A stretch of DNA of 52,133 nt. It comes from a phage. Location: the sequence record OZ470597.1. One strand, 5' to 3'. Under the pieces are notes generated by a model. That model saw only the letters and a list, made by a program, of their open reading frames with translations. It had not been told where the DNA came from and ran no database searches. Shown one piece after another: positions 4,207-52,133 of the stretch (position 1 is its first letter; each line of letters opens with the position of its first letter). The translations under genes and the position numbers were made by a program.

Positions 4207-5319
4207 ATGAAGGCAAAACAAAGATTTGATAGCGTCCAGGTTAAGGCGCATTTTGATGATAATGGATTTTTAGTGGATCGCCCAATTGTGGCGCGAATTG
4301 GTTTGCAGGAGTACCGCACACCGTATGGAATCAGACGAGAGTTCCGACCAGCGTCAGAGGTGTTTAAGGCTGATTCGCTTGCTACGTTCGCAGGCAAGCC
4401 GATCACTATCGGTCACGTCACAGTGACGCCAGATAATGCGGATCAGGTTGTTGTTGGTTCATGCGCTGGCGCTGGTGTTCCTAATGGGATTGGCGTTGAA
4501 GTTCCGTTAAGCATTTACTCAAAGCGAGCAATTGAGAGCGCAAAAAAGAAAGACACGGCGGAAATTTCAGTTGGTTACACATCGGTTGATATTGACAAGC
4601 CAGGCTGGGGTAATAATAAAACTGGTGATTACTTATTTGATGAAGACCTTAAAGAAGACTGGAAGCCTGATTCTCCTGATTGGGTCAAATTTGACGCCAT
4701 TCAGACGAATATCCGTGTTAATCACATTGCGCTTGTCTTTCGTGGTCGTGCTGGCATTGCCAAATTAAATCTTGATAGTGAACAAGATTTTCCGTATAGT
4801 GACGAGGTTCTAAATGACAAAGGAGATGAGGAAATGACAGTAAAAATTAAACTTGATGGCGCGGTAGAATTTGATGTTCCAAAGGCCGTTGCTGATCATA
4901 TTGAGGCGTTAAAGGCAGATGCAAAAGCTGCAACCGAAAAAGCTGATGGCCTTGAGGCCGAGCGCGACGCCCTGAAAACTAAAGTCGATGGCATTCCGGC
5001 GCAGATTGCAGAAGCTGTTAAGAAGGCAAAGACTGACGCAGAAGAACATGCCAAGCTGGTTGCAGATGCAACTGAAATTGGCATCAAGTGTGACGGCTTG
5101 GACGCTAAAGCGATCAAGGTTGCTTACGTCAAAGAAGTCACTGGCGCTGATATTTCAGAAAAAGCCGATGCATATATTGAAACAGCTTTTGACCTTGCGA
5201 AGCAGTCTGATAAAATGGCGGCGCAGCGTAAATCTGTTAAGGGCGATTCTTTCGAATCTGGCAAGAGTGAAAAAACCGACTCCCTTGATCCTACTGCGCG
5301 TTTGAAAAAACTTAAATAA
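4207..5319 (+). CDS. capsid scaffolding protein (DUF2213-like)
   Basis: 370 aa between MuF-like and capsid genes; C-terminal half Ala/Lys/Glu-rich coiled-coil (KADAKAATEKADGLEAERDALKTKVDG); AAGGAG RBS. Confidence 0.5.
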   Translation: MKAKQRFDSVQVKAHFDDNGFLVDRPIVARIGLQEYRTPYGIRREFRPASEVFKADSLATFAGKPITIGHVTVTPDNADQVVVGSCAGAGVPNGIGVEVPLSIYSKRAIESAKKKDTAEISVGYTSVDIDKPGWGNNKTGDYLFDEDLKEDWKPDSPDWVKFDAIQTNIRVNHIALVFRGRAGIAKLNLDSEQDFPYSDEVLNDKGDEEMTVKIKLDGAVEFDVPKAVADHIEALKADAKAATEKADGLEAERDALKTKVDGIPAQIAEAVKKAKTDAEEHAKLVADATEIGIKCDGLDAKAIKVAYVKEVTGADISEKADAYIETAFDLAKQSDKMAAQRKSVKGDSFESGKSEKTDSLDPTARLKKLK

Positions 5320-5331
5320 GGAGAAATAAAC

Positions 5332-6336: not shown

Positions 6337-6364
6337 TTGCACGTTTAACAAAAAATGCTATCAT
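6337..6364 (+). promoter_or_regulatory. sigma70-like promoter upstream of major capsid gene (TTGCAC-16-TATCAT), overlapping a reversed copy of the conserved element
   Basis: -35 at 6337-6342, -10 at 6359-6364; conserved element gtttaacaaaaaatgctat at 6343-6361. Confidence 0.4.
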
Positions 6365-10101: not shown

Positions 10102-10121
10102 CTTTTAACAAAAAGTGCTAT
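10102..10121 (+). promoter_or_regulatory. conserved element copy (reverse orientation) upstream of tail chaperone gene
   Basis: cttttaacaaaaagtgctat between terminator 10041-10063 and RBS of gene 10135. Confidence 0.35.
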
Positions 10122-20486: not shown

Positions 20487-20714
20487 TTACATGCTGCAAT
20501 CAGCGTTTTTAAAGTTATCAATGCTTACCCACTGAAAATTAAATGGATAGCCAGCCTTAACAAGAGTGCGGTCGCCAACTCGTTTTACTCCAAAGATAGC
20601 AACTGAATACTGCATTCCGCTATTTTCATAAATAGCGGTGCATTCACGTTTAGGCATATTTGCACAACCAGTCAGAGCAACGGCTGCAATCAAAACGGCG
20701 ATTAATTTTTTCAT
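20487..20714 (-). CDS. small outer-membrane lipoprotein, putative superinfection exclusion protein (Cor-like)
   Basis: 75 aa; signal peptide with lipobox LTGC (MKKLIAVLIAAVALTGCA); AAGGAG RBS; own promoter carrying the conserved motif; convergent to RBP gene. Confidence 0.55.
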   Translation of the reverse strand: MKKLIAVLIAAVALTGCANMPKRECTAIYENSGMQYSVAIFGVKRVGDRTLVKAGYPFNFQWVSIDNFKNADCSM

Positions 20715-20745: not shown

Positions 20746-20788
20746 ACTATACACGATCTTACAGCATGCGTTTAGCAAAAAGTGCTAT
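20746..20788 (-). promoter_or_regulatory. conserved-element promoter (ATAGCACTTTTTGCTAAAC + extended -10 TGTATAGT) for Cor-like lipoprotein gene
   Basis: element 20769-20788 on minus strand, -10 at 20746-20751. Confidence 0.5.
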
Positions 20789-41359: not shown

Positions 41360-41641
41360 CTAATTAATGCCAACAACGTTAAAACTTACAGCTTTTGTTG
41401 CGCTAAACACATACGCTTCAACAGCCTCACCAAATACACGAATTTTTCCATAGCCGTACTGCGCATTCATATTGCGCCAAACCGTCCTGTTAGAGCAGAA
41501 CGCGCTACCAGTCTTGATGAGATTATCCATCTCTTTTCTTATGTCATGATAATCAAGCCAGAATCTATAAGCGCGTTGTTTAATGAGTTTCGCCTTGATT
41601 GTTTCGGCTGAGTTTTTAAAATCGCTGTTTTTGTAGGCCAT
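41360..41641 (-). CDS. hypothetical protein
   Basis: 93 aa, GGAGG RBS, start overlaps upstream stop (TAATG). Confidence 0.5.
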   Translation of the reverse strand: MAYKNSDFKNSAETIKAKLIKQRAYRFWLDYHDIRKEMDNLIKTGSAFCSNRTVWRNMNAQYGYGKIRVFGEAVEAYVFSATKAVSFNVVGIN

Positions 41642-41835
41642 TACACAACCTCCATAAAAGTATTGAATCCACGCAGTTTGAAAGCGTTGCCATGTTTAAC
41701 AACGTTCCATGTCAGGCCGGAGTGATACGCAACCATATCATCAAGATCAATGGTGATGATAGCGCCTTTCTTAAAGATTCCTTTCTCGTGAGTGGTGTCA
41801 CGCTGTGCAACTTTAACATCAACCTGTGTTTCCAT
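41641..41835 (-). CDS. hypothetical protein
   Basis: 64 aa; conserved promoter element and conserved leader upstream. Confidence 0.5.
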   Translation of the reverse strand: METQVDVKVAQRDTTHEKGIFKKGAIITIDLDDMVAYHSGLTWNVVKHGNAFKLRGFNTFMEVV

Positions 41836-41866: not shown

Positions 41867-41910
41867 AATATACCAATCAGAGGCGCATCGGTTTTAACAA
41901 AAAGTGCTAT
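41867..41910 (-). promoter_or_regulatory. conserved-element promoter for 41641..41835 gene
   Basis: minus-strand ATAGCACTTTTTGTTAAAAC (41891-41910), -10 TATATT (41867-41872). Confidence 0.5.
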
Positions 41911-43292: not shown

Positions 43293-43611
43293 TTGCTGAC
43301 TGGTCATTATTCCATCTATTCCATTAATCAGGAATAACAGGAATAACTCATTCTCGATCACCTGGATTGTGAGACTTTGAGTTTGATCAATTTTAATCAG
43401 TTGATTAACTTTTTGTGTGGAGGGGATAGAGAAACGCGATCCTCTCGCATCCTTTCCGGCAATCCTGGTGAGCGCAACTGTTGTCTTCTGTTATCGCTGT
43501 TGTGCGTGTTATTCCGGCGTGGAATCGCATAACAAAAAATAACAAGAAAAATCCATATAACATACTAAAAAATAAGGATTATTTATTTATATGTATCTAT
43601 AAATTATTATC

Positions 43612-43690
43612 TGTTATGTGTGTTATGTGGTTATATTGATACCTGGTGTATTTTTGGTGGTTGTGTGTGGTTGTGTGTTGGTTGGTGTGT
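43612..43690. repeat. GT-rich tandem repeats in divergent early control region
   Basis: TGTTATGTG x2 (43612-43629) and GGTTGTGTG x2 (43659-43677); shares GGTTATGTG-type motif with 20860-21030. Confidence 0.5.
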
Positions 43691-43890
43691 ATATATGGGG
43701 TGTGGGGCGTATCCGCGCATTTTTAGATAACACGCAAAAACAACATTGATTTATAAGAAAAAAAAACGCGAATCTTGTTATGTTATGAAAAGATAACATC
43801 GGAAAACCGCCGGTAACAATAAAAAACAGTTGACACACCAGGTGGCGGTAAATGATGATGCAGTCACTGAGTCACGAGGAGGTATAAAGC

Positions 43891-44361
43891 ATGAGTGAAT
43901 CTGTATTTACAAATGAGCTTCGCAAGGTTGCGATTGCGCTCGCATCTGGATTGCACGAATCGATCCAGATACCTGAAAGATGGGTAAGGCAGCACCTGGA
44001 GGGTAAGAAGTCAGCCAGCAATGCTGGATCATATATCCGTCAGATTATGGGGCGCGTTCCAGAAGTGGCGGAGAAGGGGAGAGTTTCAGTCTCAAAGAAA
44101 CCTTACGGCCCTGATAGCGAATATTTCGGAGAAAATTACTTTGATGTGGCGATTGTTAGTGCGCCGAATCGCAGGGTGTACAACAAGGCCGCGCTTGAGA
44201 AGGCTGTAGCGAAAGCAAAACGCCAGGTTGCTGAGTCGATGCTTAAAGTCTCACCAAACCTAGCGAACTACTCGCCAGATGAATATGAAACACTTGCTAA
44301 GGCGATCGCAGACTTTCACGCGATCATTAAAGAAACATATCTTAACGATGAGGAACAATAA
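43891..44361 (+). CDS. hypothetical protein (first gene of rightward early arm)
   Basis: 156 aa, GAGGAGG RBS. Confidence 0.5.
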   Translation: MSESVFTNELRKVAIALASGLHESIQIPERWVRQHLEGKKSASNAGSYIRQIMGRVPEVAEKGRVSVSKKPYGPDSEYFGENYFDVAIVSAPNRRVYNKAALEKAVAKAKRQVAESMLKVSPNLANYSPDEYETLAKAIADFHAIIKETYLNDEEQ

Positions 44362-44362
44362 A

Positions 44363-44611
44363 ATGAGCAAACTTACTCTTGATGAACTGATGGAAAAAAT
44401 TGATGAAGTTGGCTTTAACAAACTGGTTGATTTCCACTTGACCGCATGTGAAATCACCGCGCAGGAGTTTAGCGACATGCTATCTGATGCGAGCGAGATT
44501 TACACAAGCCTATGCGGAAGAGAAATCAAAGTCATTGAAATTGAAATGCCTGGAGATCCGGTATTTGCAAGGCTTGTGGCTGCATTCGATGAGGAGAATG
44601 TTGGACTCTGA
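44363..44611 (+). CDS. hypothetical protein
   Basis: ATG 44363 with GAGGAA RBS; 82 aa acidic. Confidence 0.45.
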   Translation: MSKLTLDELMEKIDEVGFNKLVDFHLTACEITAQEFSDMLSDASEIYTSLCGREIKVIEIEMPGDPVFARLVAAFDEENVGL

Positions 44612-44617
44612 GCGGAA

Positions 44618-44661
44618 ATAGCACTTTTTGTTAAAACGCCAGGCGCAAAACCTGGCATAAT
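44618..44661 (+). promoter_or_regulatory. conserved-element promoter
   Basis: ATAGCACTTTTTGTTAAAAC 44618-44637 overlapping stop; spacer hairpin GCCAGGCGCAAAACCTGGC; -10 CATAAT 44656-44661. Confidence 0.55.
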
Positions 44662-44694
44662 AGCCTCATCGAAACGAGATTGAGGAAAACAAAA

Positions 44695-44880
44695 ATGGCA
44701 CGTCGCATCACTAAAGACCTTAAAGTCCTGAACAAAGAAAACGTAGTTAAAATTCTGGTTATCTGGGGCTACAACGAAGAAACAGCAAAGCAGAAGGTAG
44801 ATGCAGGTTATGACCTGGCTGTAAAAGCAATGCCAAACGACGACGCCAAAGGCATTGCAAACTATGTAGCTTTCTTTTAA
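44695..44880 (+). CDS. hypothetical protein
   Basis: 61 aa; downstream of conserved promoter 44618-44661. Confidence 0.45.
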   Translation: MARRITKDLKVLNKENVVKILVIWGYNEETAKQKVDAGYDLAVKAMPNDDAKGIANYVAFF

Positions 44881-44895
44881 TTAGCAGGTGAATAA

Positions 44896-45081
44896 ATGAA
44901 AACGAAATTAGTCCATAAATCAGAAATCAAGATCGGCGATACTGTGATTCACAACGGAGAGCTTAGAACTGTTGGCAAAGAGTCAATAAGCCACGATGAA
45001 TTTATGGGGATCTTGTTGTTCGGTGACTCTTATCGTCTTGGTTATAAAATGGTTGAGCTTGTGGAAGAGGTAAAATTCTAA
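44896..45081 (+). CDS. hypothetical protein
   Basis: 61 aa; AGGTG RBS. Confidence 0.45.
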   Translation: MKTKLVHKSEIKIGDTVIHNGELRTVGKESISHDEFMGILLFGDSYRLGYKMVELVEEVKF

Positions 45082-45125
45082 ATAGCACTTTTTGTTAAAA
45101 CTCAAAAACGATAACCAGGCATAAT
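45082..45125 (+). promoter_or_regulatory. conserved-element promoter
   Basis: ATAGCACTTTTTGTTAAAAC 45082-45101; -10 CATAAT 45120-45125. Confidence 0.55.
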
Positions 45126-45180
45126 GCATCATATAGGGCGGCACGGCGTCGCCCACTAAAACCAATCAGGAGAAAGCACC

Positions 45181-46068
45181 ATGTTAAAACTTGCTGACAT
45201 TAAATTCCCGATCACCTTCGAATCTCGCGGCGTTGGTCATTTCATGTTTACCGACGAGAAGACATGCACTAAGTTTAACGAATACGGAAGTCCAAACGCT
45301 TCAACAATGGAGATTGAATACTTCATTGAAGCGCACAATAAACACTACAACTCACTCAGAGACTACGGTTACGCAATGCCAGGCTACACATGTTTGCACT
45401 ATGAGCCATATAAGGGCCAGGTGTTACCAGTGCGCTCACCGGAACGCGCAGAGATTCATACGGTCGATATGAAAACCTGCGACTACAAAAAATTGTGGTG
45501 CTTAAGCGTGGATAACATCAAGTATCCGATTGTTTTTCATTGTGGCGGTTCAACAATCAGGTTCACATCACGCGACAATGGCGTTTATAGCGATGGTACG
45601 AAATCAGAGTTGAAAGTTGATTTATTTGTTAATGGTCACAACAAATTCAATCCACACAATGAAGAGGATAAGGTGTACTACGTGGAAGATGTTACAAAAC
45701 ACTTGTTTGGAGAAACACCATTCGGCGGCGGAAAGACGTCAATTCAGAAAATCATTGGCGAGGAGATCCACAAAGCTGCTACCGAAATGAAAGCGCCTGG
45801 ACGCTGGCGTATTGATAAGAGCGCCTTTGCAAATCAAGAAATCGTAACGCAGGGCGCTATTGAAGACATGCCAGTTGCCGCCACGCTAAAAGGAGTTCAG
45901 CTTGATGATGGTATGTGGTTTGAAGTAACGGCAAAACCAAAGACGATCGAGATTCATGATGATGTTGTTATTCTTCTACTTCATTACGGTAGCGCAAAAA
46001 ACCGTACCGTTGCGGGTGAGATTAGCATCAAGCGCGGAACGATGGTTAAGTGGAAGGTGAAAGTGTAA
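45181..46068 (+). CDS. hypothetical protein with internal duplication
   Basis: 295 aa; repeated segments IKFPITFESRGVGHFMFTDEKT and IKYPIVFHCGGSTIRFTSRDNG; CAGGAG RBS. Confidence 0.55.
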   Translation: MLKLADIKFPITFESRGVGHFMFTDEKTCTKFNEYGSPNASTMEIEYFIEAHNKHYNSLRDYGYAMPGYTCLHYEPYKGQVLPVRSPERAEIHTVDMKTCDYKKLWCLSVDNIKYPIVFHCGGSTIRFTSRDNGVYSDGTKSELKVDLFVNGHNKFNPHNEEDKVYYVEDVTKHLFGETPFGGGKTSIQKIIGEEIHKAATEMKAPGRWRIDKSAFANQEIVTQGAIEDMPVAATLKGVQLDDGMWFEVTAKPKTIEIHDDVVILLLHYGSAKNRTVAGEISIKRGTMVKWKVKV

Positions 46069-46111
46069 ATAGCACGAATTGTTAAAACTCAAATGTGGGG
46101 CCAAGTATAAT
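46069..46111 (+). promoter_or_regulatory. conserved-element promoter (variant)
   Basis: ATAGCACGAATTGTTAAAAC 46069-46088; -10 TATAAT 46106-46111. Confidence 0.5.
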
Positions 46112-46141
46112 GGCCTCACTTTCAACGAAGGAGATAAAACG

Positions 46142-46372
46142 ATGTACATTAACAAGAAGATGAAATGCATTTCCGTTAACTATGGTTGCTCTGTCATGTT
46201 CAAGCCTGGCGAAATCTATATGGCGCAAAAGTTGAAATCATCAACCGGATCTTTTTACGTGAGCAATAGTAAGGGGCATCGCATGTTCCTGAACGGTGGT
46301 GAAGGCACTAAGGTTATGGCACACGCTATGGTAATTGCTGAATTTGAAGAGGTGAAAGATGGAAACAAATAA
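46142..46372 (+). CDS. hypothetical protein
   Basis: ATG 46142 with GAAGGAG RBS downstream of promoter 46069-46111. Confidence 0.45.
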   Translation: MYINKKMKCISVNYGCSVMFKPGEIYMAQKLKSSTGSFYVSNSKGHRMFLNGGEGTKVMAHAMVIAEFEEVKDGNK

Positions 46373-46580
46373 GCGCGTTAAGCACAAGTTTATTGATAAT
46401 TATGGAGATGCACTTGAAGTATATAAGTTCGGCGATAGAGTTTTTATTGATGGCACGTTTGAAGGTGGTCGCAGGCCGGATTTTAGGTCGATACTCACCA
46501 TTGACCAGGTGCGCAAGCTGGCGGATAAGTTAAATGATCTGGCAGATGAAATCGAATGCAAGCAAATTCATTTTAATTGA
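46359..46580 (+). CDS. hypothetical protein
   Basis: 73 aa; GAGGTG RBS; overlaps upstream stop. Confidence 0.45.
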   Translation: METNKRVKHKFIDNYGDALEVYKFGDRVFIDGTFEGGRRPDFRSILTIDQVRKLADKLNDLADEIECKQIHFN

Positions 46581-46591
46581 TAGGTTTGATA

Positions 46592-47131
46592 ATGAAAAAA
46601 TACGAATTTGAACTTTGGGGCAGCAAATACCATTTTTCCACGAGCAAGCCGATTGTTATCGTTGACCTGGACGGAACGTTATCAGACGGAACGCATCGCT
46701 TGCACCTGCTTCCGACAGAAGATTTGCACCTTACAGAAAGCTGGTCTGAGTTCAACAAAGCGGCTGTTGGCGATTCTCCGATTAAGAGCACGGTTTCAGT
46801 GGTTAACGGATTGTGGATGTCAGGATTTGCCGTGGTTATCCTGACCGGACGTAGCGATGAAGTGATGGAGGACACCTGCAAATGGCTTAACGAAAACGGC
46901 ATCAAGTACGATGCGTTAATCATGCGCCGCAAGGAAGACAACCGCAAAGACACAATCATCAAAGAAGAAGTCTTGCGCGCTATCGGACTGGAAAACATTG
47001 TGTGCGCTTTTGATGATTCGCCGAACGTGGTTAAGCACTTCCGCAGCCTGGGAATCACAACCTATCAGGTCACGGAATACGACAATCCACATAATCATAT
47101 CCAATCGCATGGCGTGGAGGAATTGAAATGA
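46592..47131 (+). CDS. HAD-superfamily phosphatase (polynucleotide 3'-phosphatase-like)
   Basis: HAD motif I VIVDLDGTL, motif II ILTGRS, motif IV AFDDSPN. Confidence 0.6.
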   Translation: MKKYEFELWGSKYHFSTSKPIVIVDLDGTLSDGTHRLHLLPTEDLHLTESWSEFNKAAVGDSPIKSTVSVVNGLWMSGFAVVILTGRSDEVMEDTCKWLNENGIKYDALIMRRKEDNRKDTIIKEEVLRAIGLENIVCAFDDSPNVVKHFRSLGITTYQVTEYDNPHNHIQSHGVEELK

Positions 47132-47289
47132 CCTGGTTACTTTTAATCTTTGTCACAAGTTACAATTCCGCCGCTATTGAATCGCAAGAGTTCCACGGCG
47201 AATCAAGATGCCAGGAAGCACGAAAACAAGTTGTTCTCCACATGTCAGATAGTGGGAAAGATGTAACAGCGCTATGCGTTCGTAAATAG
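47128..47289 (+). CDS. hypothetical small protein with signal-peptide-like N-terminus
   Basis: 53 aa ORF, start overlaps upstream stop (ATGA); stop TAG inside conserved promoter element. Confidence 0.3.
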   Translation: MTWLLLIFVTSYNSAAIESQEFHGESRCQEARKQVVLHMSDSGKDVTALCVRK

Positions 47290-47329
47290 CACTTTTTGCA
47301 AAAACACATTATCGGGCTTGCGGTATAGT
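47286..47329 (+). promoter_or_regulatory. conserved-element promoter (variant)
   Basis: ATAGCACTTTTTGCAAAAAC 47286-47305; -10 TATAGT 47324-47329. Confidence 0.5.
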
Positions 47330-47360
47330 AAGCCAATCGACAACAAGCGAGGATTAAATC

Positions 47361-47624
47361 ATGGTTAATAAAGTTGAGTTTTTCAAAGCGGTAGACAAGA
47401 TTGACGGCGCGCCAAGTTTCTTTGCTATCCATTCCATTGACGGCGAAGACGTTGCATACAACGTGATTAGTCGAGACGGTATATCAAAACTTAGTGATCT
47501 GGTGGGTTATATTGTGGCAAACGGGAAATGTGCATGGCCAGATTCGCCACGAGAGCCGCGCCGCCGCGACATGCAAAATCCAGTCCTGCTTTACACGCTG
47601 GTAATTGAAGGAGTCAACAAATGA
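47361..47624 (+). CDS. hypothetical protein
   Basis: 87 aa; GAGGA RBS; downstream of promoter 47286-47329. Confidence 0.45.
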   Translation: MVNKVEFFKAVDKIDGAPSFFAIHSIDGEDVAYNVISRDGISKLSDLVGYIVANGKCAWPDSPREPRRRDMQNPVLLYTLVIEGVNK

Positions 47625-47806
47625 TTTGGTTACTTGTATTTTTGGTTGTTTTCTTTTATATTTCAGGCTTATTCATCTTCCGTGCGCTGGTGAAAACATG
47701 CGATTGCACGGATAAAGATCAGCCTCTTGTTCTGATGTTCTGGTTTGTGTGGTTTTGGGTTGCGCTTTATCAGATTGTACGGGATAAAAGCGGATTCAAG
47801 TGGTGA
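47621..47806 (+). CDS. hypothetical membrane protein (two predicted TMDs)
   Basis: 61 aa, GAAGGAG RBS, two hydrophobic helices (IWLLVFLVVFFYISGLFIF; LVLMFWFVWFWVALYQI). Confidence 0.45.
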   Translation: MIWLLVFLVVFFYISGLFIFRALVKTCDCTDKDQPLVLMFWFVWFWVALYQIVRDKSGFKW

Positions 47807-48000
47807 TTCTTACTATAGCGCATTCACGCAGTGCGCTATGTTGAGATAACAACATGAGATCATGAAGATGCGAAACTTCGAAAAAATCGTATCCAAAAAG
47901 AAGCGATACAGCTACCACGAGCACCAAGAGATGAATCAACGCTATCGCAATAAGCGCCAGCGCAAAGGTAAACATTCCGGTAAACATGGAGAAAATCAAT

Positions 48001-48591
48001 ATGAAACGAGACATTATCATCCTTAACGGACCGCCAGGAGTTGGCAAAGATACGCTTGCGGCATACTTAACGGGCCATCGTTACGCAGCGGTTAAAGCGT
48101 CATTTAAACAGCCTATGTTCGATATTGCATTCTCCATGCTTGGCGTTTACCGATATGACGAGTTCATTGATCTGTATAACGACCGTGAGCAGAAAGAAAA
48201 GCCTCAAGCAATCTTGCAAGGCAAGTCTCCGCGACAATTCATGATCTGGATTAGCGAAGAAGTCATGAAGCCAGCTTTTGGCGAGCAATATTTTGGGAAT
48301 CGCATGGTTGAGCAAGTACACGAGATGTACAGAGATTTAGCTGTTGTAATTAGTGATGGAGGATTCCCTGAAGAAATCAAGCCGCTCGTTAAGGCAGGCC
48401 ATGAAGTTCACATTTGCCGACTGCATCGCGAAGGCTTCACGTTTGATGGCGATTCACGAAACTATATTGACCTGAGCGGATACCATCACCGAGTAAAACA
48501 TTACGACTTCACAATGATTGATGGCGATCCAGAAAAGACTGTTGACGAGATCATCAAAACTGTCAAGTGGAAACACATTAAGATCAAATAG
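48001..48591 (+). CDS. P-loop kinase (polynucleotide kinase / dNMP kinase-like)
   Basis: Walker A GPPGVGKDT at N-terminus; start at ATG 48001 with GGAG RBS (ORF extends to 47986). Confidence 0.6.
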   Translation: MKRDIIILNGPPGVGKDTLAAYLTGHRYAAVKASFKQPMFDIAFSMLGVYRYDEFIDLYNDREQKEKPQAILQGKSPRQFMIWISEEVMKPAFGEQYFGNRMVEQVHEMYRDLAVVISDGGFPEEIKPLVKAGHEVHICRLHREGFTFDGDSRNYIDLSGYHHRVKHYDFTMIDGDPEKTVDEIIKTVKWKHIKIK

Positions 48592-48631
48592 CACGAATTG
48601 CTAAAAGCGGGGCGCAATGCCTCGCTATAAT
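48588..48631 (+). promoter_or_regulatory. conserved-element promoter (variant)
   Basis: ATAGCACGAATTGCTAAAAG 48588-48607; -10 TATAAT 48626-48631. Confidence 0.5.
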
Positions 48632-48661
48632 GCAAAAACCAATCAACGAAAGGACTTGGAT

Positions 48662-49066
48662 ATGTTAGATCTTCACAAAATCCGCGTAGGCACAAAATTT
48701 GTTGTAACCTGGGTATATGATGAGCGATGCGGCATTCGTAAAGGTGAGATTGTAACGGCTTCCGATCGCTATATCGGATCGTTAAAAGAGTTTAACCGAC
48801 CGCGCATTAAGAATGGCTATATCATTACTCGACGACTTGGCTTTGATCATTATTGCGTAGTGGCAACTCAAGGCTTTTTGATTGAGCTTAAGCGAATCAG
48901 AGATCATCGCGGCTGCCATGTTAAGACAATGAAGATACCATTTCAGCAAGCGCGATACGATGCGCGACGTATGCGCCGACTTGCGCGAAATGCGATCAAG
49001 TTCAAAAAGCCTGATAATGTTTTTTACGGCATGTACAAGGGGATTGCGCGAAATGCTGGGAAATAA
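48662..49066 (+). CDS. hypothetical protein
   Basis: ATG 48662 with AAGGA RBS downstream of promoter 48588-48631. Confidence 0.45.
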   Translation: MLDLHKIRVGTKFVVTWVYDERCGIRKGEIVTASDRYIGSLKEFNRPRIKNGYIITRRLGFDHYCVVATQGFLIELKRIRDHRGCHVKTMKIPFQQARYDARRMRRLARNAIKFKKPDNVFYGMYKGIARNAGK

Positions 49067-49165
49067 CAACAACGCAACAAATCCAAAGCCGCCATTTAAT
49101 TTTCATGAAATCATGATTGTGTTATTCTTGATTCTCTTAGTTGTTTATTCAGTGAGGGCCGCAAT

Positions 49166-49429
49166 ATGGTTTTTAATGCACTAAAACGAATCTTTAAACC
49201 TGAATACCGGATCGTTGCTTGCACAGAATGCAAGATTTATTACCTGCAACGCCGCCGCGTTATTAGTGGCGATTGGGAATACCTAACGGATGATGCTTTC
49301 GGCTTTTGGGTTATGGAGTTCAATAGCTACAGTGAAGCGCGTGAGTACGCTAAAAAGTTGCACAAGTTCCGACCTTACAAACTGCGTTTACTGGTTGTTA
49401 AAAAATGCGATGTGTGGGATCACGAATGA
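49166..49429 (+). CDS. hypothetical protein
   Basis: 87 aa; GAGGG RBS. Confidence 0.45.
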   Translation: MVFNALKRIFKPEYRIVACTECKIYYLQRRRVISGDWEYLTDDAFGFWVMEFNSYSEAREYAKKLHKFRPYKLRLLVVKKCDVWDHE

Positions 49430-49554
49430 AAAGAGTAATTATCATTTTTATTGCCGTTATCGCTGGTTGCTACCTGGCTTATAATTATCCGTTATTGCTG
49501 GTTGCTACCTGGCTTATAATTATAGCGGCATTGTTGAGTCAATCGGCGGGTTGA
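49426..49554 (+). CDS. hypothetical small membrane peptide containing a 35-bp tandem repeat
   Basis: 42 aa hydrophobic ORF overlapping upstream stop (ATGA); coding status uncertain. Confidence 0.25.
   Translation: MKRVIIIFIAVIAGCYLAYNYPLLLVATWLIIIAALLSQSAG
49454..49523 (+). repeat. tandem direct repeat, 2 x 35 bp
   Basis: CCGTTAT(C/T)GCTGGTTGCTACCTGGCTTATAATTAT at 49454-49488 and 49489-49523, one mismatch. Confidence 0.85.
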
Positions 49555-49683
49555 TTATCTTCATGGCTGGCGGGTATGCTGGCTATTGTGATGGATTCGA
49601 AAACGGTAAGCGTTACATGCTGACCGAAAAAAAAGAAGTAATGTTAACCGCGCCGCTTCGGTGGCGCTAAAAGGAGGAAGCAA

Positions 49684-49971
49684 ATGGCTAAAAGCTATCG
49701 TAAAATGTTGATTAACGCATTCGAAAAGGCAGCGCTTGAGCGTGGTTGGAATGACTCATTTCACACAGCAAACTGTATCCGCCGTTACGGATTCAAGAAT
49801 TGCCGCTCATGGGCGCGTCAAATGGCTTCATGGTATGATCTTGATGCGCATTACCTTGATATGGATTGCGCGCTGGTTGAAATGATTGAGCAGGCAGCGC
49901 TAGAGGATCGACCATTGACGCAATCTGATTTTGACGATTTTGTTCGCGATGAAATCTATTACATGAGCTAA
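49684..49971 (+). CDS. hypothetical protein
   Basis: 95 aa; AAAGGAGG RBS. Confidence 0.5.
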   Translation: MAKSYRKMLINAFEKAALERGWNDSFHTANCIRRYGFKNCRSWARQMASWYDLDAHYLDMDCALVEMIEQAALEDRPLTQSDFDDFVRDEIYYMS

Positions 49972-50013
49972 TAGCACTTTTTGTTAAAACTTCCGCGAGG
50001 GCATTTGTTAAAG
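49971..50013 (+). promoter_or_regulatory. conserved-element promoter
   Basis: ATAGCACTTTTTGTTAAAAC 49971-49990; extended -10-like TGTTAAAGT 50005-50013. Confidence 0.45.
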
Positions 50014-50046
50014 TGTCCTCATTGAAGCGAAACAGAGGAAAGAGCA

Positions 50047-50304
50047 ATGTCAACCTTAAAAGATAAAAATTTTATCGGTCATGTTAGAGTTAAGTTAATC
50101 AATGTTGACTACAGACCAGATCCAGAATCGCCAACATTGCGCGAGTGGGCCGGATTCGAAAACGTAAAGGAAATGGTTGTAGAGCTTTACAAAGATGGTG
50201 AGATGTGGGCGATGGCTGGCATTAATCACAACGGCGAATTTGGCGAAGTAAAAGAAACAGATTGGTTTAGTCTTACAGATAATGAAGCGGAGATTATCGA
50301 ATGA
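50047..50304 (+). CDS. hypothetical protein
   Basis: 85 aa; AGAGGAA RBS; first of three translationally coupled genes. Confidence 0.45.
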   Translation: MSTLKDKNFIGHVRVKLINVDYRPDPESPTLREWAGFENVKEMVVELYKDGEMWAMAGINHNGEFGEVKETDWFSLTDNEAEIIE

Positions 50305-50564
50305 TCACGATTAACCTGTCAGAGCAGCAAGCGCGCATTATGTTAGCGGCCTTCGGTTGGCGAGATGATAACGGTATTCAGTCAACGGTTAAAATTCCTG
50401 AGCCAGTGGCGCGTGAAGTTTTCAGCCAGCTAGAACACGCATTTGATCCGGCTGGGGCTGAGCAAGCGGAAACTGCCGCATGGTTCGGTGAGAACGGATA
50501 CCGCGATCATCAGATTGAAGAATGGAAGCGCAAAAACGAAACGGCGGAGGATGCTGGATTATGA
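50301..50564 (+). CDS. hypothetical protein
   Basis: 87 aa; start overlaps upstream stop (ATGA). Confidence 0.45.
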   Translation: MITINLSEQQARIMLAAFGWRDDNGIQSTVKIPEPVAREVFSQLEHAFDPAGAEQAETAAWFGENGYRDHQIEEWKRKNETAEDAGL

Positions 50565-50875
50565 TTTACATTCACTACTACCAGATCGGGACAAACGAAA
50601 ACAAGCAGGAGCGCAGAGCAATTTGTGACACGCTCGACGATGCGAAAGCACAGCAACGCGTTTTGGGTGGTGTAATTCAGGCTTTTGAGCCAGTGGAAGA
50701 TATAGAGCACCGAGAGCATTTGAAAGAGATTGTTGTTGATGAAATTTCATCACTAATCGACGACATGACAAATCACGGACCTGGTTCTCCGTGGGAAGAA
50801 GATGGATCGACGGAGTGGGATTGCGCTAAAGTTGCAACACTTAACAACTTTCGTGAGTTGCTCGACGATTTTTAA
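50561..50875 (+). CDS. hypothetical protein
   Basis: 104 aa; start overlaps upstream stop (ATGA). Confidence 0.45.
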   Translation: MIYIHYYQIGTNENKQERRAICDTLDDAKAQQRVLGGVIQAFEPVEDIEHREHLKEIVVDEISSLIDDMTNHGPGSPWEEDGSTEWDCAKVATLNNFRELLDDF

Positions 50876-50945
50876 TTAAAATTGAATGCCTCATACAGCG
50901 AACAGGACGCATTTTGACGAGGAATTTTTTAGGTAAGGTGATTCA

Positions 50946-51074
50946 ATGGATAACTACATAAAACCGTCGCAGTGGTGCGCACAGAAGCAAGAGGAAGCAT
51001 TAGAACGCGGCGACACTGAAACGGCAATGCACTATTTCGAAATGTACAACTTGTGGAAGGGCAGAGGTCTGTAA
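50946..51074 (+). CDS. hypothetical small protein
   Basis: 42 aa ORF with AGGTAAGGTG RBS. Confidence 0.3.
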   Translation: MDNYIKPSQWCAQKQEEALERGDTETAMHYFEMYNLWKGRGL

Positions 51075-51304
51075 TGTTTGGAATGAACGAGGCACAATTC
51101 AACGCTGCAAAACGCCAGGCTAAGAAGTGCGGCGAGGCAATGAAGGCGGATGTTGAAAAGCGCGGGAAGTATGTTGATGAAGTTATGAAGGGCATTATTG
51201 CCGAACATTATCAGCCAGTTGCGCCAATGCTGACAATCACTCAATTCATCTGGTTGTGTGGTTATCTTCGTGGGAGATGGGGAAACGCATTTGACCGCGA
51301 ATGA
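51074..51304 (+). CDS. hypothetical protein
   Basis: 76 aa; start overlaps upstream stop (TAATG). Confidence 0.4.
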   Translation: MFGMNEAQFNAAKRQAKKCGEAMKADVEKRGKYVDEVMKGIIAEHYQPVAPMLTITQFIWLCGYLRGRWGNAFDRE

Positions 51305-51448
51305 TTGACAACGATTTCCTGATTGGATAGCATATCAATCGTTTACATAAGAGCGGCTAAGGCCGAACGGGTGGCGCGGTTGCCACGCAACAACGGCGAT
51401 ATGCAGGTTTTTACCGTAAGACGTATCGCCTTCTTTATAGGTGAATAT

Positions 51449-51682
51449 ATGGAAAAATACAAATTAACTTTCATGTTTGACAGTATGGTGATGAATCCAT
51501 TAAATGGTTACGCTTGCAATAGCTTTTCTGTTACCGTTAATGAGGATGAAATTGATGATGATGGTAAATTTATTCGAATAGGTGATTACATTTATCCTAT
51601 TCACAATATCAATTGCATCAAGCGCGAGATTGTTAAGGATGAAGTACAAAGTAAAGCTGACAATCAGACGAATGGGGCGTAA
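51449..51682 (+). CDS. hypothetical protein
   Basis: ATG 51449 with AGGTGA RBS. Confidence 0.4.
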   Translation: MEKYKLTFMFDSMVMNPLNGYACNSFSVTVNEDEIDDDGKFIRIGDYIYPIHNINCIKREIVKDEVQSKADNQTNGA

Positions 51683-51827
51683 TTGCCAGTCATGTAGGCA
51701 GGATTTTGAATGCGAGATTTCAGCGCAAAATCCTGTTGACGCGATTCAATGCGCTAAAGTTATATCAGGTGCAGATCCAGAGACGCATCAATTTTCAATC
51801 AACTTTGTAAGGGAAGTATCATGTTAA
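51639..51827 (+). CDS. hypothetical Cys-rich small protein
   Basis: overlapping ORF with CQSCRQDFEC motif; start uncertain. Confidence 0.25.
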   Translation: MKYKVKLTIRRMGRNCQSCRQDFECEISAQNPVDAIQCAKVISGADPETHQFSINFVREVSC

Positions 51828-52054
51828 ACTTAATTTCTGCTTTTGTTATTGGTTTTGTTTTTGCTGTAATTATTCTGCTTATCGCGTCGGAAAAGATTTG
51901 CAAATTTCTTGCTAAGAACGGGAAGTTTGCAAGCGCGACATGGAATAACAAGAAGCAGCGATGGGATGTGCGCGGTCACTACCTGACGATTGGTAGCAAA
52001 ATCCATCAACATCTGAAGAATCAAGAAGATGAAAAAGTAAAATACAAGTGTTGA
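51821..52054 (+). CDS. hypothetical membrane protein
   Basis: 77 aa; N-terminal TMD LISAFVIGFVFAVIILLIA; terminator after. Confidence 0.45.
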   Translation: MLNLISAFVIGFVFAVIILLIASEKICKFLAKNGKFASATWNNKKQRWDVRGHYLTIGSKIHQHLKNQEDEKVKYKC

Positions 52055-52060
52055 ACAACT

Positions 52061-52085
52061 ACCCGCCAAATGGCGGGTTTTTTAT
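52061..52085 (+). terminator. intrinsic terminator at end of rightward early arm
   Basis: CCCGCC...GGCGGG hairpin followed by TTTTTT; TATAAT at 52101-52106 downstream. Confidence 0.65.
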
Positions 52086-52133
52086 TGTCTGCAATTTGTC
52101 TATAATGAGGCTTTGTTATAAAGGAGGGCGCAT

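Follow-up and report, generated by a model that had tools for sequence, protein, structure and literature searches.

The window analysed here, the full 52,133 nucleotides of phage sequence record OZ470597.1, carries a left arm of 27 open reading frames (ORFs), all on the plus strand, between 43891 and 52054. These represent 26 loci when g17 and g18 are counted as one gene, and their products of 39 to 295 aa agree with the one-directional array of small genes (40 to 300 aa) described in the initial annotation. Public records of relatives annotate 22 to 31 coding sequences over the equivalent span. A sequence search returns 234 matching phage records, with phage vojen matching the arm at 93% coverage and 95.4% identity, and sequence comparison places the source phage in Hanrivervirus, among the T1-like Drexlerviridae siphoviruses. 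The arm closes with an intrinsic terminator 81 nt ahead of the start of terS (window position 2), and the records of T1, Chapo, and G29-2 annotate a terminator at the equivalent position.

g1, 43891-44361, plus strand: 156 aa, DUF7174 / phrog_4841; pN/pS 0.14
g2, 44363-44611, plus strand: 82 aa, acidic (net -12), phrog_31863; pN/pS 0.07
g3, 44695-44880, plus strand: 61 aa, DUF7421; pN/pS 0.11; Hanrivervirus only
g4, 44896-45081, plus strand: 61 aa, phrog_3623; pN/pS 0.02
g5, 45181-46068, plus strand: 295 aa, T1 ST70 family (phrog_7116)
g6, 46142-46372, plus strand: 76 aa, weak phrog_9122 match; pN/pS 0.14
g7, 46359-46580, plus strand: 73 aa, phrog_14011; pN/pS 0.15
g8, 46592-47131, plus strand: 179 aa, PNKP-phosphatase-type HAD; pN/pS 0.12
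g9, 47128-47289, plus strand: 53 aa, signal-peptide-like N terminus, 2 Cys; ATGA-coupled to g8
g10, 47361-47624, plus strand: 87 aa, weak PHROG matches only; variable alleles
g11, 47621-47806, plus strand: 61 aa, two transmembrane (TM) segments, phrog_9755; ATGA-coupled to g10; pN/pS 0.11
g12, 47862-48026, plus strand: 54 aa, very basic; overlaps the g13 start by 26 nt
g13, 48001-48591, plus strand: 196 aa, P-loop (GPPGVGKDT), phage dNMP-kinase family; pN/pS 0.05
g14, 48662-49066, plus strand: 134 aa, net charge +20; matches no family in the libraries searched; pN/pS 0.39; Hanrivervirus only
g15, 49053-49184, plus strand: 43 aa, one TM segment; overlaps g14 and g16; pN/pS 0.59
g16, 49166-49429, plus strand: 87 aa, CxxC motif, no family match; pN/pS 0.07; Hanrivervirus only
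g17, 49426-49554, plus strand: one TM segment; fragment of a 59-codon gene
g18, 49551-49670, plus strand: second fragment of the same 59-codon gene
g19, 49684-49971, plus strand: 95 aa, matches the C-terminal half of phrog_8758; pN/pS 0.06
g20, 50047-50304, plus strand: 85 aa, acidic (net -9), phrog_5684
g21, 50301-50564, plus strand: 87 aa, acidic (net -8), DUF7180
g22, 50561-50875, plus strand: 104 aa, acidic (net -14), phrog_11192; pN/pS 0.19
g23, 50946-51074, plus strand: 42 aa, phrog_1312; pN/pS 0.11
g24, 51074-51304, plus strand: 76 aa, phrog_303; pN/pS 0.02
g25, 51449-51682, plus strand: 77 aa, no family match
g26, 51639-51827, plus strand: 62 aa, five Cys including a CxxC, phrog_2919
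g27, 51821-52054, plus strand: 77 aa, N-terminal TM anchor, DUF7299
Terminator, 52061-52088, plus strand: 7-bp GC-rich stem and T run, closing the arm

Assignment and conservation of the arm genes

As initially proposed, no function can be assigned beyond a HAD phosphatase (g8) and a kinase (g13). For the remaining 25 ORFs, any hits in Pfam, PHROGs, and NCBIfam are limited to DUFs and PHROGs of unknown function; a PDB sequence search returns no match for them, and the arm ORFs show no meaningful match in PADLOC. Of the approaches called for in the initial annotation, homology searches lead to an assignment for g8 and g13, while AlphaFold models and fold searches of g1 and g5 lead to none. The g1 model contains a confident N-terminal α/β domain (residues 1 to 90) that weakly resembles winged-helix and R3H folds. 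The internal duplication claimed for g5 is real but modest (residues 2 to 54 against 108 to 156, 28% identity, E 8e-5): N-module copies at residues ∼1 to 55 and 108 to 160, both matching the N terminus of T1 ST70, are followed by a conserved C-terminal β domain, and the fold search with the g5 model gives no match. Several small membrane proteins had also been predicted, and four or five are found: g11 with two TM segments, g15, g17, and g27 with one each, and g9 with its signal-peptide-like N terminus.

The phosphatase g8 scores 80.1 bits against Pfam HAD_PNKP (cutoff, 27.6) and keeps the DxDxT motif as DLDGT. It aligns with the HAD phosphatase domains of T4 Pnkp (1LTQ, E 1.8e-5) and Pnkp1 (4XRP, E 6e-9) but comprises 179 aa without a kinase domain, compared to 301 aa for T4 Pnkp, which makes the common record label "polynucleotide kinase" a misnomer. 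The kinase g13 matches phrog_139 with an E value of 8.7e-51. Its substrate is taken only from the PHROG and the record annotations, since the PDB holds no detectable sequence relative of g13 among solved structures, T4 dNMP kinase included, and Pfam and NCBIfam give nothing above cutoff. Each of the 10 relatives tested carries homologues of both enzymes. The g13 homologue of the Klebsiella webervirus MUC-5.2 adjoins and overlaps the g8 homologue, and the two adjoin in other weberviruses.

A presence/absence matrix shows many of the arm ORFs missing or swapped in close relatives, and this mosaic is as expected for accessory, host-interaction genes. g1 is near-identical in vojen only, with alleles of 24 to 32% identity in other relatives. 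The g2 slot is occupied by a different family (phrog_6360) in phiE31-2, and the slot gene of JLBYU41 shares the DUF4884 label. g3 and g4 are jointly absent from JLBYU41 and JLBYU09; g7, g9, and g25 are missing from JakobBernoulli, and damhaus has no annotated counterpart of g9, a gene that, judged by eye, resembles T1 ST69. g19 is common to the Tempevirinae relatives tested. g20 is undetected by tblastn in 10 relatives, yet the gene in their corresponding slot falls into the same PHROG, and on these comparisons it is a deeply diverged allele; it is ∼98% identical in 5 coliphages and 46 to 48% identical among the Klebsiella phages listed, with 133 matching Klebsiella records. g21 shows two allele classes in the genus, at ∼86% or ∼49% identity. 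The most constrained ORF is g24, with 100% protein identity within the genus and 34% to T1, and g26 is conserved out to T1 (49%). Two records label g24 "inducer of pleiotropic effects," a label whose basis is not traceable.

Purifying selection acts on most of the arm, with pN/pS values of 0.02 to 0.19 in 19 of 23 scorable ORFs, many with tens of synonymous changes. A properly spaced Shine-Dalgarno (SD) site or else an ATGA overlap accompanies the start of most ORFs. The translationally coupled trio at 50047-50875 is borne out by ATGA overlaps at g20/g21 and g21/g22, and the same overlap is found at g8/g9, g10/g11, and g16/g17. g17 and g18 form one 59-codon membrane-protein gene (49426-49670) that two changes disrupt in this genome: a 35-bp insertion at 49462-49496, duplicating 27 bp of the sequence downstream of it, and one extra A in a poly-A run at ∼49627-49634.

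Promoters, repeat cassettes, and homology breakpoints

The element ATAGCACnnnnTGnnAAAA occurs six times in the arm (44618, 45082, 46069, 47286, 48588, and 49971); the whole window has 20 copies, where 2.6 would be expected. A conserved-element promoter had been proposed before each gene; in fact the element lies ahead of just 6 of the 27 ORFs, heading operon-like groups rather than single genes. Conservation extends beyond the repeat over ∼75 nt to the ATG, at a distance fixed in most copies.

Promoter match upstream of g1, 43830-43859, plus strand: sigma-70-like, TTGACA-18-GATGAT, consensus match only; not a cassette
Cassette 1, 44616-44694, plus strand: core AAATAGCACTTTTTGTTAAAAC, hairpin CCAGG/CCTGG, GGCATAAT, leader CATCGAAACGA, SD; hairpin z -2.95
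Cassette 2, 45080-45180, plus strand: no significant hairpin; longer leader
Cassette 3, 46067-46141, plus strand: "GAA" subtype; hairpin around the -10; z -4.93
Cassette 4, 47284-47360, plus strand: hairpin z -2.94
Cassette 5, 48586-48661, plus strand: "GAA" subtype; hairpin z -3.69
Cassette 6, 49969-50046, plus strand: hairpin z -3.83
Promoter match upstream of g25, 51305-51333, plus strand: sigma-70-like, TTGACA-17-TAGCAT

The cassette consists of the core AAATAGCACTTTTTGTTAAAAC, a stem-loop that varies between copies, a good -10 hexamer, and a conserved leader with the SD site. A significant hairpin is present in 13 of 19 cassette copies (P = 5e-7 against random segments). The upstream part of the core would sit at the position of an UP element or activator site, and the core includes a weak -35-like TTAAAA. 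The poor -35-like hexamer and the spacer of 18 to 19 nt, together with an invariant ATAGCAC that is overconserved for a plain UP element, suggest that a dedicated regulator may be involved.

Elsewhere in the genome, cassettes lie ahead of cor, the primase, two helicases, a DNA methyltransferase, and several opposite-arm ORFs of small size; none of the 20 copies in the window lies upstream of structural genes in the sense orientation. On the basis of this promoter class the arm is plausibly transcribed early in infection; searches of the literature found no published transcript-timing or transcription start site data for T1-like phages, Hanrivervirus included. A perfect cassette copy is located upstream of gene 54 of phage Bas11. 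The native upstream region of this gene drives expression in uninfected Escherichia coli, and escape mutations upstream of gene 54, at positions not stated in the text, lower its expression (PMC11578894).

Homology breakpoints fall into cassettes in 23 of 65 cases, compared to 4.1 expected, an enrichment that may partly reflect selection for intact genes, as ordinary gene junctions are also rich in breakpoints. Cassette 1 contains a breakpoint in five relatives, and in 8 of 11 relatives the swapped g20 allele is bounded on its left by the 3' edge of cassette 6. In JLBYU41, an exact deletion from cassette 1 to cassette 2 removes g3 and g4; it is the only clean cassette-to-cassette event found and is a new observation of this analysis.

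Proposed organization and alternative readings

With a probability of about 0.72, the region corresponds to the canonical accessory-gene left arm of a T1-like Hanrivervirus, including its transcription units, cassettes, enzymes, and exchanged small genes. The arm would span from the divergent noncoding region, equivalent to the left end of the T1 and TLS genomes, to the intrinsic terminator before the small terminase gene. It would be read by host sigma-70 RNA polymerase as ∼9 transcription units, 6 of which begin with a cassette and 2 more with the sigma-70-like matches at 43830 and 51305; within the units, genes are packed tightly and frequently ATGA coupled. g8 and g13 would be family-wide genes, g8 encoding a phosphatase-only enzyme homologous to the phosphatase domain of T4 Pnkp and g13 a P-loop kinase of the dNMP-kinase type. 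Jointly, they most likely feed breakdown products of host DNA into phage DNA synthesis. For these two kinases, a part in nucleotide supply has also been suggested in work on Drexlerviridae (PMC13164509), and degradation of host DNA with reuse of the nucleotides is described for T1 and TLS (PMC11447400). The ∼23 remaining small proteins would be products of real genes that are under purifying selection yet individually dispensable and that move between phages as modules with boundaries often inside cassettes. They most likely act early by binding components of the host or of competitors that are located at the envelope, within defense systems, or on nucleic acids, with no target that can be named.

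That many of the small ORFs are instead spurious annotations within a long leader or regulatory stretch is highly improbable. g12 appears doubtful as a gene, being intact and ungapped in 4 of 10 relatives with only 8 substitutions to judge from; g15 is weakly constrained (pN/pS 0.59), g17/g18 is broken, and the gene calls vary between records (22 to 31), but the low pN/pS values of 19 ORFs, the SD sites or ATGA overlaps, and the phage protein family matches of most ORFs argue for genes. It is also quite unlikely that g8 and g13, rather than being a salvage pair, act as a split polynucleotide kinase-phosphatase in RNA repair, such as the healing of tRNAs cleaved by anticodon nucleases. Among solved structures, g8 is most closely related to the phosphatase domains of the RNA-repair enzyme Pnkp1 and of T4 Pnkp, the two genes lie together in weberviruses, and the record of Stevie, from the TLS group, annotates a 26-codon Stp-like ORF in the equivalent arm. 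Against this, g13 matches a dNMP-kinase PHROG and not the Pnk kinase domain, T4 Pnkp in the PDB is hit by g8 and missed by g13, family searches reveal no RNA ligase among the arm ORFs, and nucleotide reuse as described for T1 and TLS fits salvage.

A somewhat stronger but still unlikely reading takes the repeat as chiefly an operator ("stoperator") or activator site through which a phage-encoded regulator switches the cassette-driven genes jointly, in place of a simple constitutive host promoter. The activity of the Bas11 cassette region in uninfected cells means that basal activity needs no phage factor, and g1 is not conserved wherever the repeat occurs (no tblastn hit in T1, Chapo, or IsaakIselin), its model showing only the weak winged-helix and R3H similarity. 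Such an operator is compatible with the accessory-region reading as an extra regulatory layer. The possibility that the arm is chiefly an arsenal against host defenses or for host takeover, with several proteins inhibiting bacterial immune systems or shutting down host functions, deserves the most weight among these alternatives, though it too is on the unlikely side. The genes are small, mosaic, cassette driven, and probably early, g1, g20, and g21 show deep allelic divergence, and the proteins of the coupled trio are acidic (net -9, -8, and -14), as are many DNA-mimic inhibitors. A protein of the Gp54 family from the sister arm is a proven defense trigger, and its authors speculate that Gp54 inhibits another system (PMC11578894). 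Yet the PADLOC, Pfam, NCBIfam, and PDB searches gave nothing, the fold searches of g1 and g5 yield no assignment, and the conservation of g5, g21, g24, and g26 out to T1 fits housekeeping better than an arms race.

The accessory-region reading agrees with the initial annotation in part. Its description holds for the array, the gene sizes, the lack of assignments, the duplication, the trio, and the membrane proteins, but not for a promoter before each gene. Its interpretation stands for unassignable small genes that are mosaic and plausibly early, but neither for per-gene promoters nor for an undescribed region, and the family, PADLOC, PDB, and fold searches tie no ORF to host takeover or anti-defense. 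The arm had been considered the likeliest place for undescribed functions, but an equivalent arm with "hypothetical protein" content is present in more than 200 deposited phage genomes, and about half of the T1 genes, mostly small ORFs, lack an assignment (PMC13164509). The arm is an ordinary, already cataloged block of mostly unknown small genes found in all T1-like coliphages, and no specific new function emerged for any of its ORFs.

Comparison with known phage systems

The promoter-early stem-loops (PeSLs; PMC2839356, PMC4122927) of T4-type phages are, like the cassettes described here, repeated composites of promoter and stem-loop, and both flank small novel ORFs in plastic regions and have indel junctions inside the motif. 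The phage family, sequence, and order of parts differ, with the core first and the stem-loop in or around the spacer and -10 in the present cassettes. In PeSLs, a terminator-like stem-loop reportedly precedes the promoter. That the cassettes, known here from sequence alone, work like PeSLs would be an analogy rather than membership.

Gp54 of Bas11 is a small early protein that triggers CapRel-SJ46 (PMC11578894) and is the only such Drexlerviridae protein with a demonstrated host-immunity interaction. Like the arm products, it is small, nonessential, cassette driven, of unknown function, and encoded in a Drexlerviridae accessory arm. The window encodes its homologue on the minus strand of the opposite arm (41641-41835), and none of the arm ORFs resembles Gp54 in sequence.

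The closest counterparts are the left arms of T1 (ST77 to ST55) and TLS (gp01 to gp28), which match this arm in position, from the left end to terS, and in orientation. In both, a noncoding left end is followed by ∼25 small ORFs, among them pnk and, in TLS, dmk, and then by terS. Common landmarks are the PNKP-type phosphatase, the P-loop kinase, ST70/g5, the homologues of g21, g24, and g26, and the terminator preceding terS. The arms differ from one another in the gene modules they carry: g3, g4, g9, g14, g16, g17/g18, and g25 are limited to Hanrivervirus, g5 carries an extra N-module, and the g20 allele is common only to a few coliphages and Klebsiella phages. The arm element is the 21-nt direct repeat aaATAGCACnnnTTGnTAAAA already published for TLS, T1, and Rtp and carried in the T1 and TLS arms, and its "T" (TTT spacer) and "G" (GAA spacer) subtypes both recur here, according to the available part of PMC11447400. 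Beyond the TLS description, as far as that part extends, the present analysis newly defines the repeat as a ∼75-nt cassette of promoter, variable hairpin, -10, and leader, links it to published promoter activity, and shows that it carries a deletion junction.

Identity and gene content of the arm

The window comprises the complete, circularly permuted genome of a T1-like siphovirus (Drexlerviridae, Tempevirinae, genus Hanrivervirus), and the stretch at 43891-52054 is an ordinary, standard accessory arm of such phages, already catalogued and with the "unknown" status of its genes on record. The arm shows 95.4% identity with Escherichia phage vojen over 93% of its length, and parts of it are common to 234 phage records. 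The first 25 kb of the window is 96-97% identical to SFP17, vojen, and egaa and is annotated in relatives as terminase, portal, capsid, and tail genes. In T1 and TLS, the same arm forms the left end of the genome, following a noncoding stretch of ~550 bp, and contains ~25 small open reading frames (ORFs), including pnk (and in TLS also dmk), up to terS; the T1 record annotates a terminator ahead of terS. This layout from the noncoding left end to terS is identical in T1, TLS, Chapo, and vojen. All arm genes of the window lie on the + strand and are directed towards terS, which starts at window position 2, 81 nt past the last ORF (g27), and the arm closes with a strong intrinsic terminator at 52061-52078. 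As in a Drexlerviridae left arm, a PNKP-type phosphatase gene and a P-loop dNMP-kinase-type gene lie amid many small hypothetical ORFs, and the direct repeat ATAGCAC...TAAAA, oriented with transcription, punctuates the arm. The main features, with ORFs numbered g1 to g27 in order, are as follows.

43891-52054, + strand, arm with 27 ORFs
45181-46068, + strand, g5, counterpart of T1 ST70 with an internal duplication
46592-47131, + strand, g8, HAD phosphatase
48001-48591, + strand, g13, putative deoxynucleoside monophosphate kinase
49426-49670, + strand, g17 and g18, one split gene
50047-50875, + strand, g20-g22, translationally coupled trio
52061-52078, intrinsic terminator

The region at 43361-43890 between the two arms is divergent and noncoding, with a GT-rich tract at ~43610-43700, and corresponds in position to the noncoding left end of the T1 and TLS records; its first 130 bp alone are conserved, in several relatives. 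A scan of the arm against Rfam gave a single subthreshold isrK match over the terminator, which was dismissed, and the window contains no tRNAs. A further intrinsic terminator, annotated in Stevie at the position equivalent to the end of g22, was rejected for the window because its fold is no better than that of shuffled sequence (z = 0.81).

Most of the 27 ORFs have a Shine-Dalgarno site or overlap the preceding gene. The arm is real, and its initial annotation is correct except for the claim of a conserved-element promoter ahead of each gene, which is wrong: the repeat occurs in six arm copies heading groups of one to six ORFs. The coupled trio is borne out by ATGA overlaps at g20/g21 and g21/g22, and further such overlaps occur at g8/g9, g10/g11, and g16/g17. 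Likewise, the small membrane proteins are recovered as clear transmembrane segments in g11, g15, g17, and g27, with a signal-peptide-like start in g9. The duplication reported within g5 is real and modest (residues 2 to 54 versus 108 to 156, 28% identity, E = 8e-5). As described, the HAD phosphatase g8 (Pfam HAD_PNKP) and the kinase g13 (phrog_139) are the sole ORFs given a function; for the remainder, matches are limited to DUFs (DUF7174, DUF7421, DUF7180, and DUF7299) and PHROGs without a known function, or are lacking altogether. For the larger products, NCBIfam and the defense systems of PADLOC gave nothing useful, with no meaningful PADLOC match, and when the 25 unassigned products were queried together as one joined sequence, no relative turned up in the PDB.

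Comparison of each ORF with its counterparts in 11 Hanrivervirus arms made 23 ORFs scorable for pN/pS (g5, g17, and g18 were not). Since 19 of the 23 score 0.02 to 0.19, many of them on tens of synonymous changes, most arm ORFs are, as judged from substitution patterns, genes under purifying selection. Exceptions are g15 (0.59), g14 (0.39), and g26 (0.35), along with g12, which has only 8 substitutions, is intact and ungapped in 4 of 10 relatives, and overlaps the start of g13. The ORFs g12, g15, and g17/g18 are doubtful or broken. The ORFs g17 and g18 represent one gene: four relatives contain a single 59-codon membrane-protein gene at this place and lack both a 35-bp insertion within 49462-49531 of the window, which repeats 27 bp of the adjoining downstream sequence, and one extra A in a poly-A run at about 49627-49634. 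Together, the insertion and the extra A split the 59-codon gene into g17 and g18, a disruption that may represent either true loss of function or an artifact of assembly or sequencing. Several functional labels in the records of related phages find no support in Pfam, PHROGs, or NCBIfam; one of them, "inducer of pleiotropic effects" for g24, could be traced to no paper in a literature search.

Table. Unsupported labels in the records of phiE31-2, JLBYU41, and SFP17
g5: "tail fiber protein"
SFP17 gene adjoining or overlapping g20: "RCC1"
g6, g7, g14: "HNH endonuclease"
g20 slot: "type 11 methyltransferase"
g24: "inducer of pleiotropic effects," "fusion protein"

Core genes, accessory genes, and the two enzymes

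The distribution of the 27 products was determined by tblastn against the arms of ten relatives from five genera. The two enzymes g8 and g13 are universal in these ten; g21, g24, g26, and the C-terminal two-thirds of g5 are common to T1, and g19, g22, and g23 are common to the Tempevirinae relatives tested. Within this set, g3, g4, g9, g14, g16, g17/g18, and g25 are restricted to Hanrivervirus. The family-wide core consists of g8 and g13, followed by g5, g21, g24, and g26, and the rest are genus-specific or swapped modules. Near-identical copies of g1 and g2 are found in vojen only; elsewhere, the g1 slot contains alleles of 24 to 32% identity belonging to the same PHROG, and the g2 slot is occupied by a different family. 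No counterpart of g20 was detected by tblastn in any of the ten relatives. Because the gene in this slot of vojen and JakobBernoulli belongs to the same PHROG as g20 (5684), g20 is a deeply diverged allele. The allele of the window is ~98% identical in five coliphages and shows 46 to 48% identity among the Klebsiella phage matches listed, with 133 Klebsiella records matching. Since natural phages without g3-g4, g7, g9, g11-g12, or g25 exist, these genes are individually dispensable.

Related arms contain additional small genes. In pSf-1, an extra gene at 2858-3010, between g5 and the third repeat copy, encodes a product beginning with MATWILLILMIDGG with 2 Cys residues; by eye, this product resembles g9 and T1 ST69, which suggests that this type of signal-peptide-like miniprotein occurs as paralogues in the arm. 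The equivalent arm of Stevie has a 26-codon ORF at 5242-5322 annotated as Stp-like (PrrC anticodon nuclease activator, or restriction inhibitor), and an equally long hypothetical ORF occupies the corresponding place in TLS (1865-1945).

The core protein g5 is the counterpart of T1 ST70, which it matches end to end with residues 108 to 294 (40% identity), and residues 1 to 55 give a second match to the ST70 N terminus. This N-module, with a conserved HN..NP.N motif, is present in one copy in T1 and haarsle, two in the window, and three in P0050; in Stevie, the gene is apparently split. A fusion of the tandem T1 paralogues ST71 and ST70 was considered as the origin of g5 and rejected, because ST71 is unrelated and both repeats match the ST70 N terminus. 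The family is tiny: an exhaustive HMMER search of 1.84 billion proteins gave 41 cluster representatives, none longer than 375 amino acids and most of ~150 to 190, and no functional lead, since that protein library carries neither names nor annotation. An AlphaFold model built on a 32-sequence alignment, gathered by two homologue searches, shows three folded pieces. No fold could be assigned, because the model is moderately confident (mean pLDDT of 63.6) and the best Foldseek match in the PDB, with an E value of 0.79, is no structural match. For g1, structural comparison with winged-helix domains gave weak similarity.

The phosphatase g8 matches Pfam HAD_PNKP (PF25109) with 80.1 bits, compared to a gathering cutoff of 27.6, keeps HAD motif I (DxDxT) as DLDGT, and belongs to a family present in 1,409 phage records. 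In contrast to the bifunctional T4 Pnkp type, this protein of 179 amino acids has no N-terminal P-loop 5'-kinase domain, so the label "polynucleotide kinase" found in many records is a misnomer for a phosphatase-only protein. Its partner g13 matches phrog_139, "deoxynucleoside monophosphate kinase" (E = 8.7e-51), with the Walker A motif GPPGVGK (family pattern GxxGxGK). Relatives of g13 occur in 1,437 records and are annotated as dNMP kinase in T5-like and other phages, including distant relatives; no relative of solved structure was found, and nothing exceeded the cutoff in Pfam or NCBIfam. Homologues of g8 and g13 adjoin and overlap in the Klebsiella webervirus MUC-5.2 and adjoin in other weberviruses. 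That the pair forms a split RNA-repair PNKP is a minor alternative; g8 aligns solely with phosphatase domains, those of RNA-repair Pnkp1 (4XRP, E = 6e-9) and T4 Pnkp (1LTQ, E = 1.8e-5). The authors of the KanT1 study interpret the two genes as extending the replication module by a supply of nucleotides (PMC13164509), and the TLS reannotation states that T1 and TLS degrade host DNA and reuse the nucleotides (PMC11447400). The reading of the KanT1 authors is adopted here, with the putative activities of g8 and g13 supplying nucleotides for phage replication.

The repeat as a promoter, stem-loop, and leader cassette

The repeat element occurs in 20 copies genome-wide, compared to 2.6 expected by chance, six of them in the arm, and the arms of 16 relatives scanned contain four to nine copies each. 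In the TLS reannotation, the element is a 21-nt direct repeat, aaATAGCACnnnTTGnTAAAA, that was found at 21 sites, oriented with transcription and located ~76 nt 5' of start codons, and that is present also in T1 and Rtp; a stoperator, an enhancer site, and a UP-like element are given as its candidate roles (PMC11447400). Alignment of the 20 copies of the window shows that conservation reaches beyond the published 21 nt to a cassette of ~75 nt, ordered as AAATAGCACTTTTTGTTAAAAC, a spacer of 16 to 17 nt, a GGCATAAT-like box, the leader CATCGAAACGA, a Shine-Dalgarno site, and ATG. The hexamer TTGTTA is not a -35 element because its distance of 22 nt from the -10 box is too great; the -35-like hexamer is TTAAAA, with an 18- to 19-nt spacer, so that ATAGCAC and the T run come to lie at about -45 to -60. 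The stretch from core to leader forms a hairpin with a z score below -1.5 in 13 of 19 copies (mean of -2.6 versus 0.0 in random segments; Mann-Whitney P = 5e-7), with stem sequences that vary between copies. The cassette is a composite of promoter, stem-loop, and leader that extends the published repeat; together with the support for host-polymerase promoter activity and the module deletion described below, it constitutes the most useful new point of this analysis.

Outside the arm, cassettes precede the genes for the Cor superinfection-exclusion lipoprotein, the primase, two helicases, and a DNA methyltransferase as well as small ORFs of the opposite arm; no sense-oriented cassette lies ahead of a structural gene in the window. 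In Bas11 (JohannLBurckhardt), gene 54 lies directly 3' of a perfect cassette, as does its Bas10 homologue. According to the study of the defense system CapRel-SJ46, uninfected Escherichia coli expresses gene 54 from a plasmid that includes the native upstream region of the gene, and upstream escape mutations reduce its expression (PMC11578894). These two observations provide indirect but experimental support for the cassette as a promoter read by the host polymerase without phage factors. Literature searches on transcript timing in T1-like phages gave nothing usable; based on the Bas11 promoter experiment and the distribution of cassettes, early expression is the most likely reading for the arm.

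The Cor gene (20487-20714, - strand; phrog_1119, E = 4.8e-29) lies antisense inside the + strand GC-skew region (1-23 kb) and is driven by the cassette copy at 20770. Two other cores on the - strand, at 10103-10121 and 6343-6361, are antisense within the + strand structural-gene block. The copy at 10103 could yield a short antisense RNA, since no ORF lies downstream of it and its -10-like box is followed, after ~30 nt, by a GC-rich hairpin flanked by A/T runs. The copy at 6343 has 2 mismatches and precedes only a 43-codon ORF. One copy in JLBYU09 (~1745-1765) is missed by pattern searches because its core consists partly of Ns in the deposited record.

Module exchange and host interaction

Of the 65 internal homology breakpoints seen in comparison with 11 Hanrivervirus arms, 23 fall in the six arm cassettes, compared to 4.1 expected; counted by distinct sites, 6 of ~22 are in cassettes, and nearly all others are gene junctions. 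The sole clean two-sided event found is that between JLBYU41 and phiE31-2. JLBYU41 matches phiE31-2 up to the core AAATAGCACTTTTTGTTAAAAC of the cassette ahead of g3 and then continues with the sequence downstream of the cassette ahead of g5. It lacks exactly one cassette-to-cassette unit, that of g3 and g4, which spans 464 bp in the window, and the junction falls within the 22-nt repeat core. Cassettes can be sites of module deletion. The extra gene of pSf-1 was rejected as a second event, an insertion from cassette to cassette, since a cassette is present on one side only. In the proposed mechanism, cassettes would be the sites where modules of the arm are lost or gained. A functional parallel is found in T4-type phages, in which promoter/stem-loop (PeSL) cassettes are reported to mediate modular shuffling (PMC2839356, PMC4122927).

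The arm could plausibly serve as a reservoir of host-interaction genes; searches of Pfam, PHROGs, NCBIfam, PADLOC, and the PDB tied no ORF beyond the two enzymes to a function. A homologue of the crystallized CapRel trigger Gp54 of Bas11 was sought within the arm by the PDB search with the joined products and not found; it sits in the opposite, leftward arm. There, at 41641-41835 on the - strand, a homologue (64 to 66 amino acids) of Gp57 of Bas10 and Gp54 of Bas11 shows 51.5% identity (E = 3e-16), with a cassette copy ahead at 41892. Those proteins are small β-barrel proteins and direct triggers of CapRel-SJ46. By analogy, the arm cassettes may be PeSL-like shuffling devices supplying exchangeable early genes, with at least one variable, cassette-bounded module acting as a counterdefense factor or defense trigger like Gp54 of the sister arm, a tentative reading given a chance of roughly one in three. 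The best candidates for such modules would be the acidic coupled trio g20-g22 and g5; the alleles of g20 and g21 are deeply diverged, and the N-module of g5 varies from one to three copies.

That T1-like phages have such an arm, with small genes left unassigned and labeled "hypothetical" in hundreds of genome records, is known already. The practical value of the analysis lies in a cleaned, prioritized gene list ranked by conservation, in which doubtful or broken ORFs are flagged and several unsupported record labels are corrected. The cassette picture offers a concrete, testable mechanism for the turnover of early genes in Drexlerviridae. Like the PeSLs of T4-type phages, the arm repeat combines a promoter, with activity seen via Bas11, and a stem-loop, and indel junctions between close relatives lie inside its motif. 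Unlike them, the arm cassettes belong to another phage family, and the parts of T4-type PeSLs are reportedly arranged in a different order. The resemblance of the cassettes to PeSLs is a functional analogy rather than membership in the same group.
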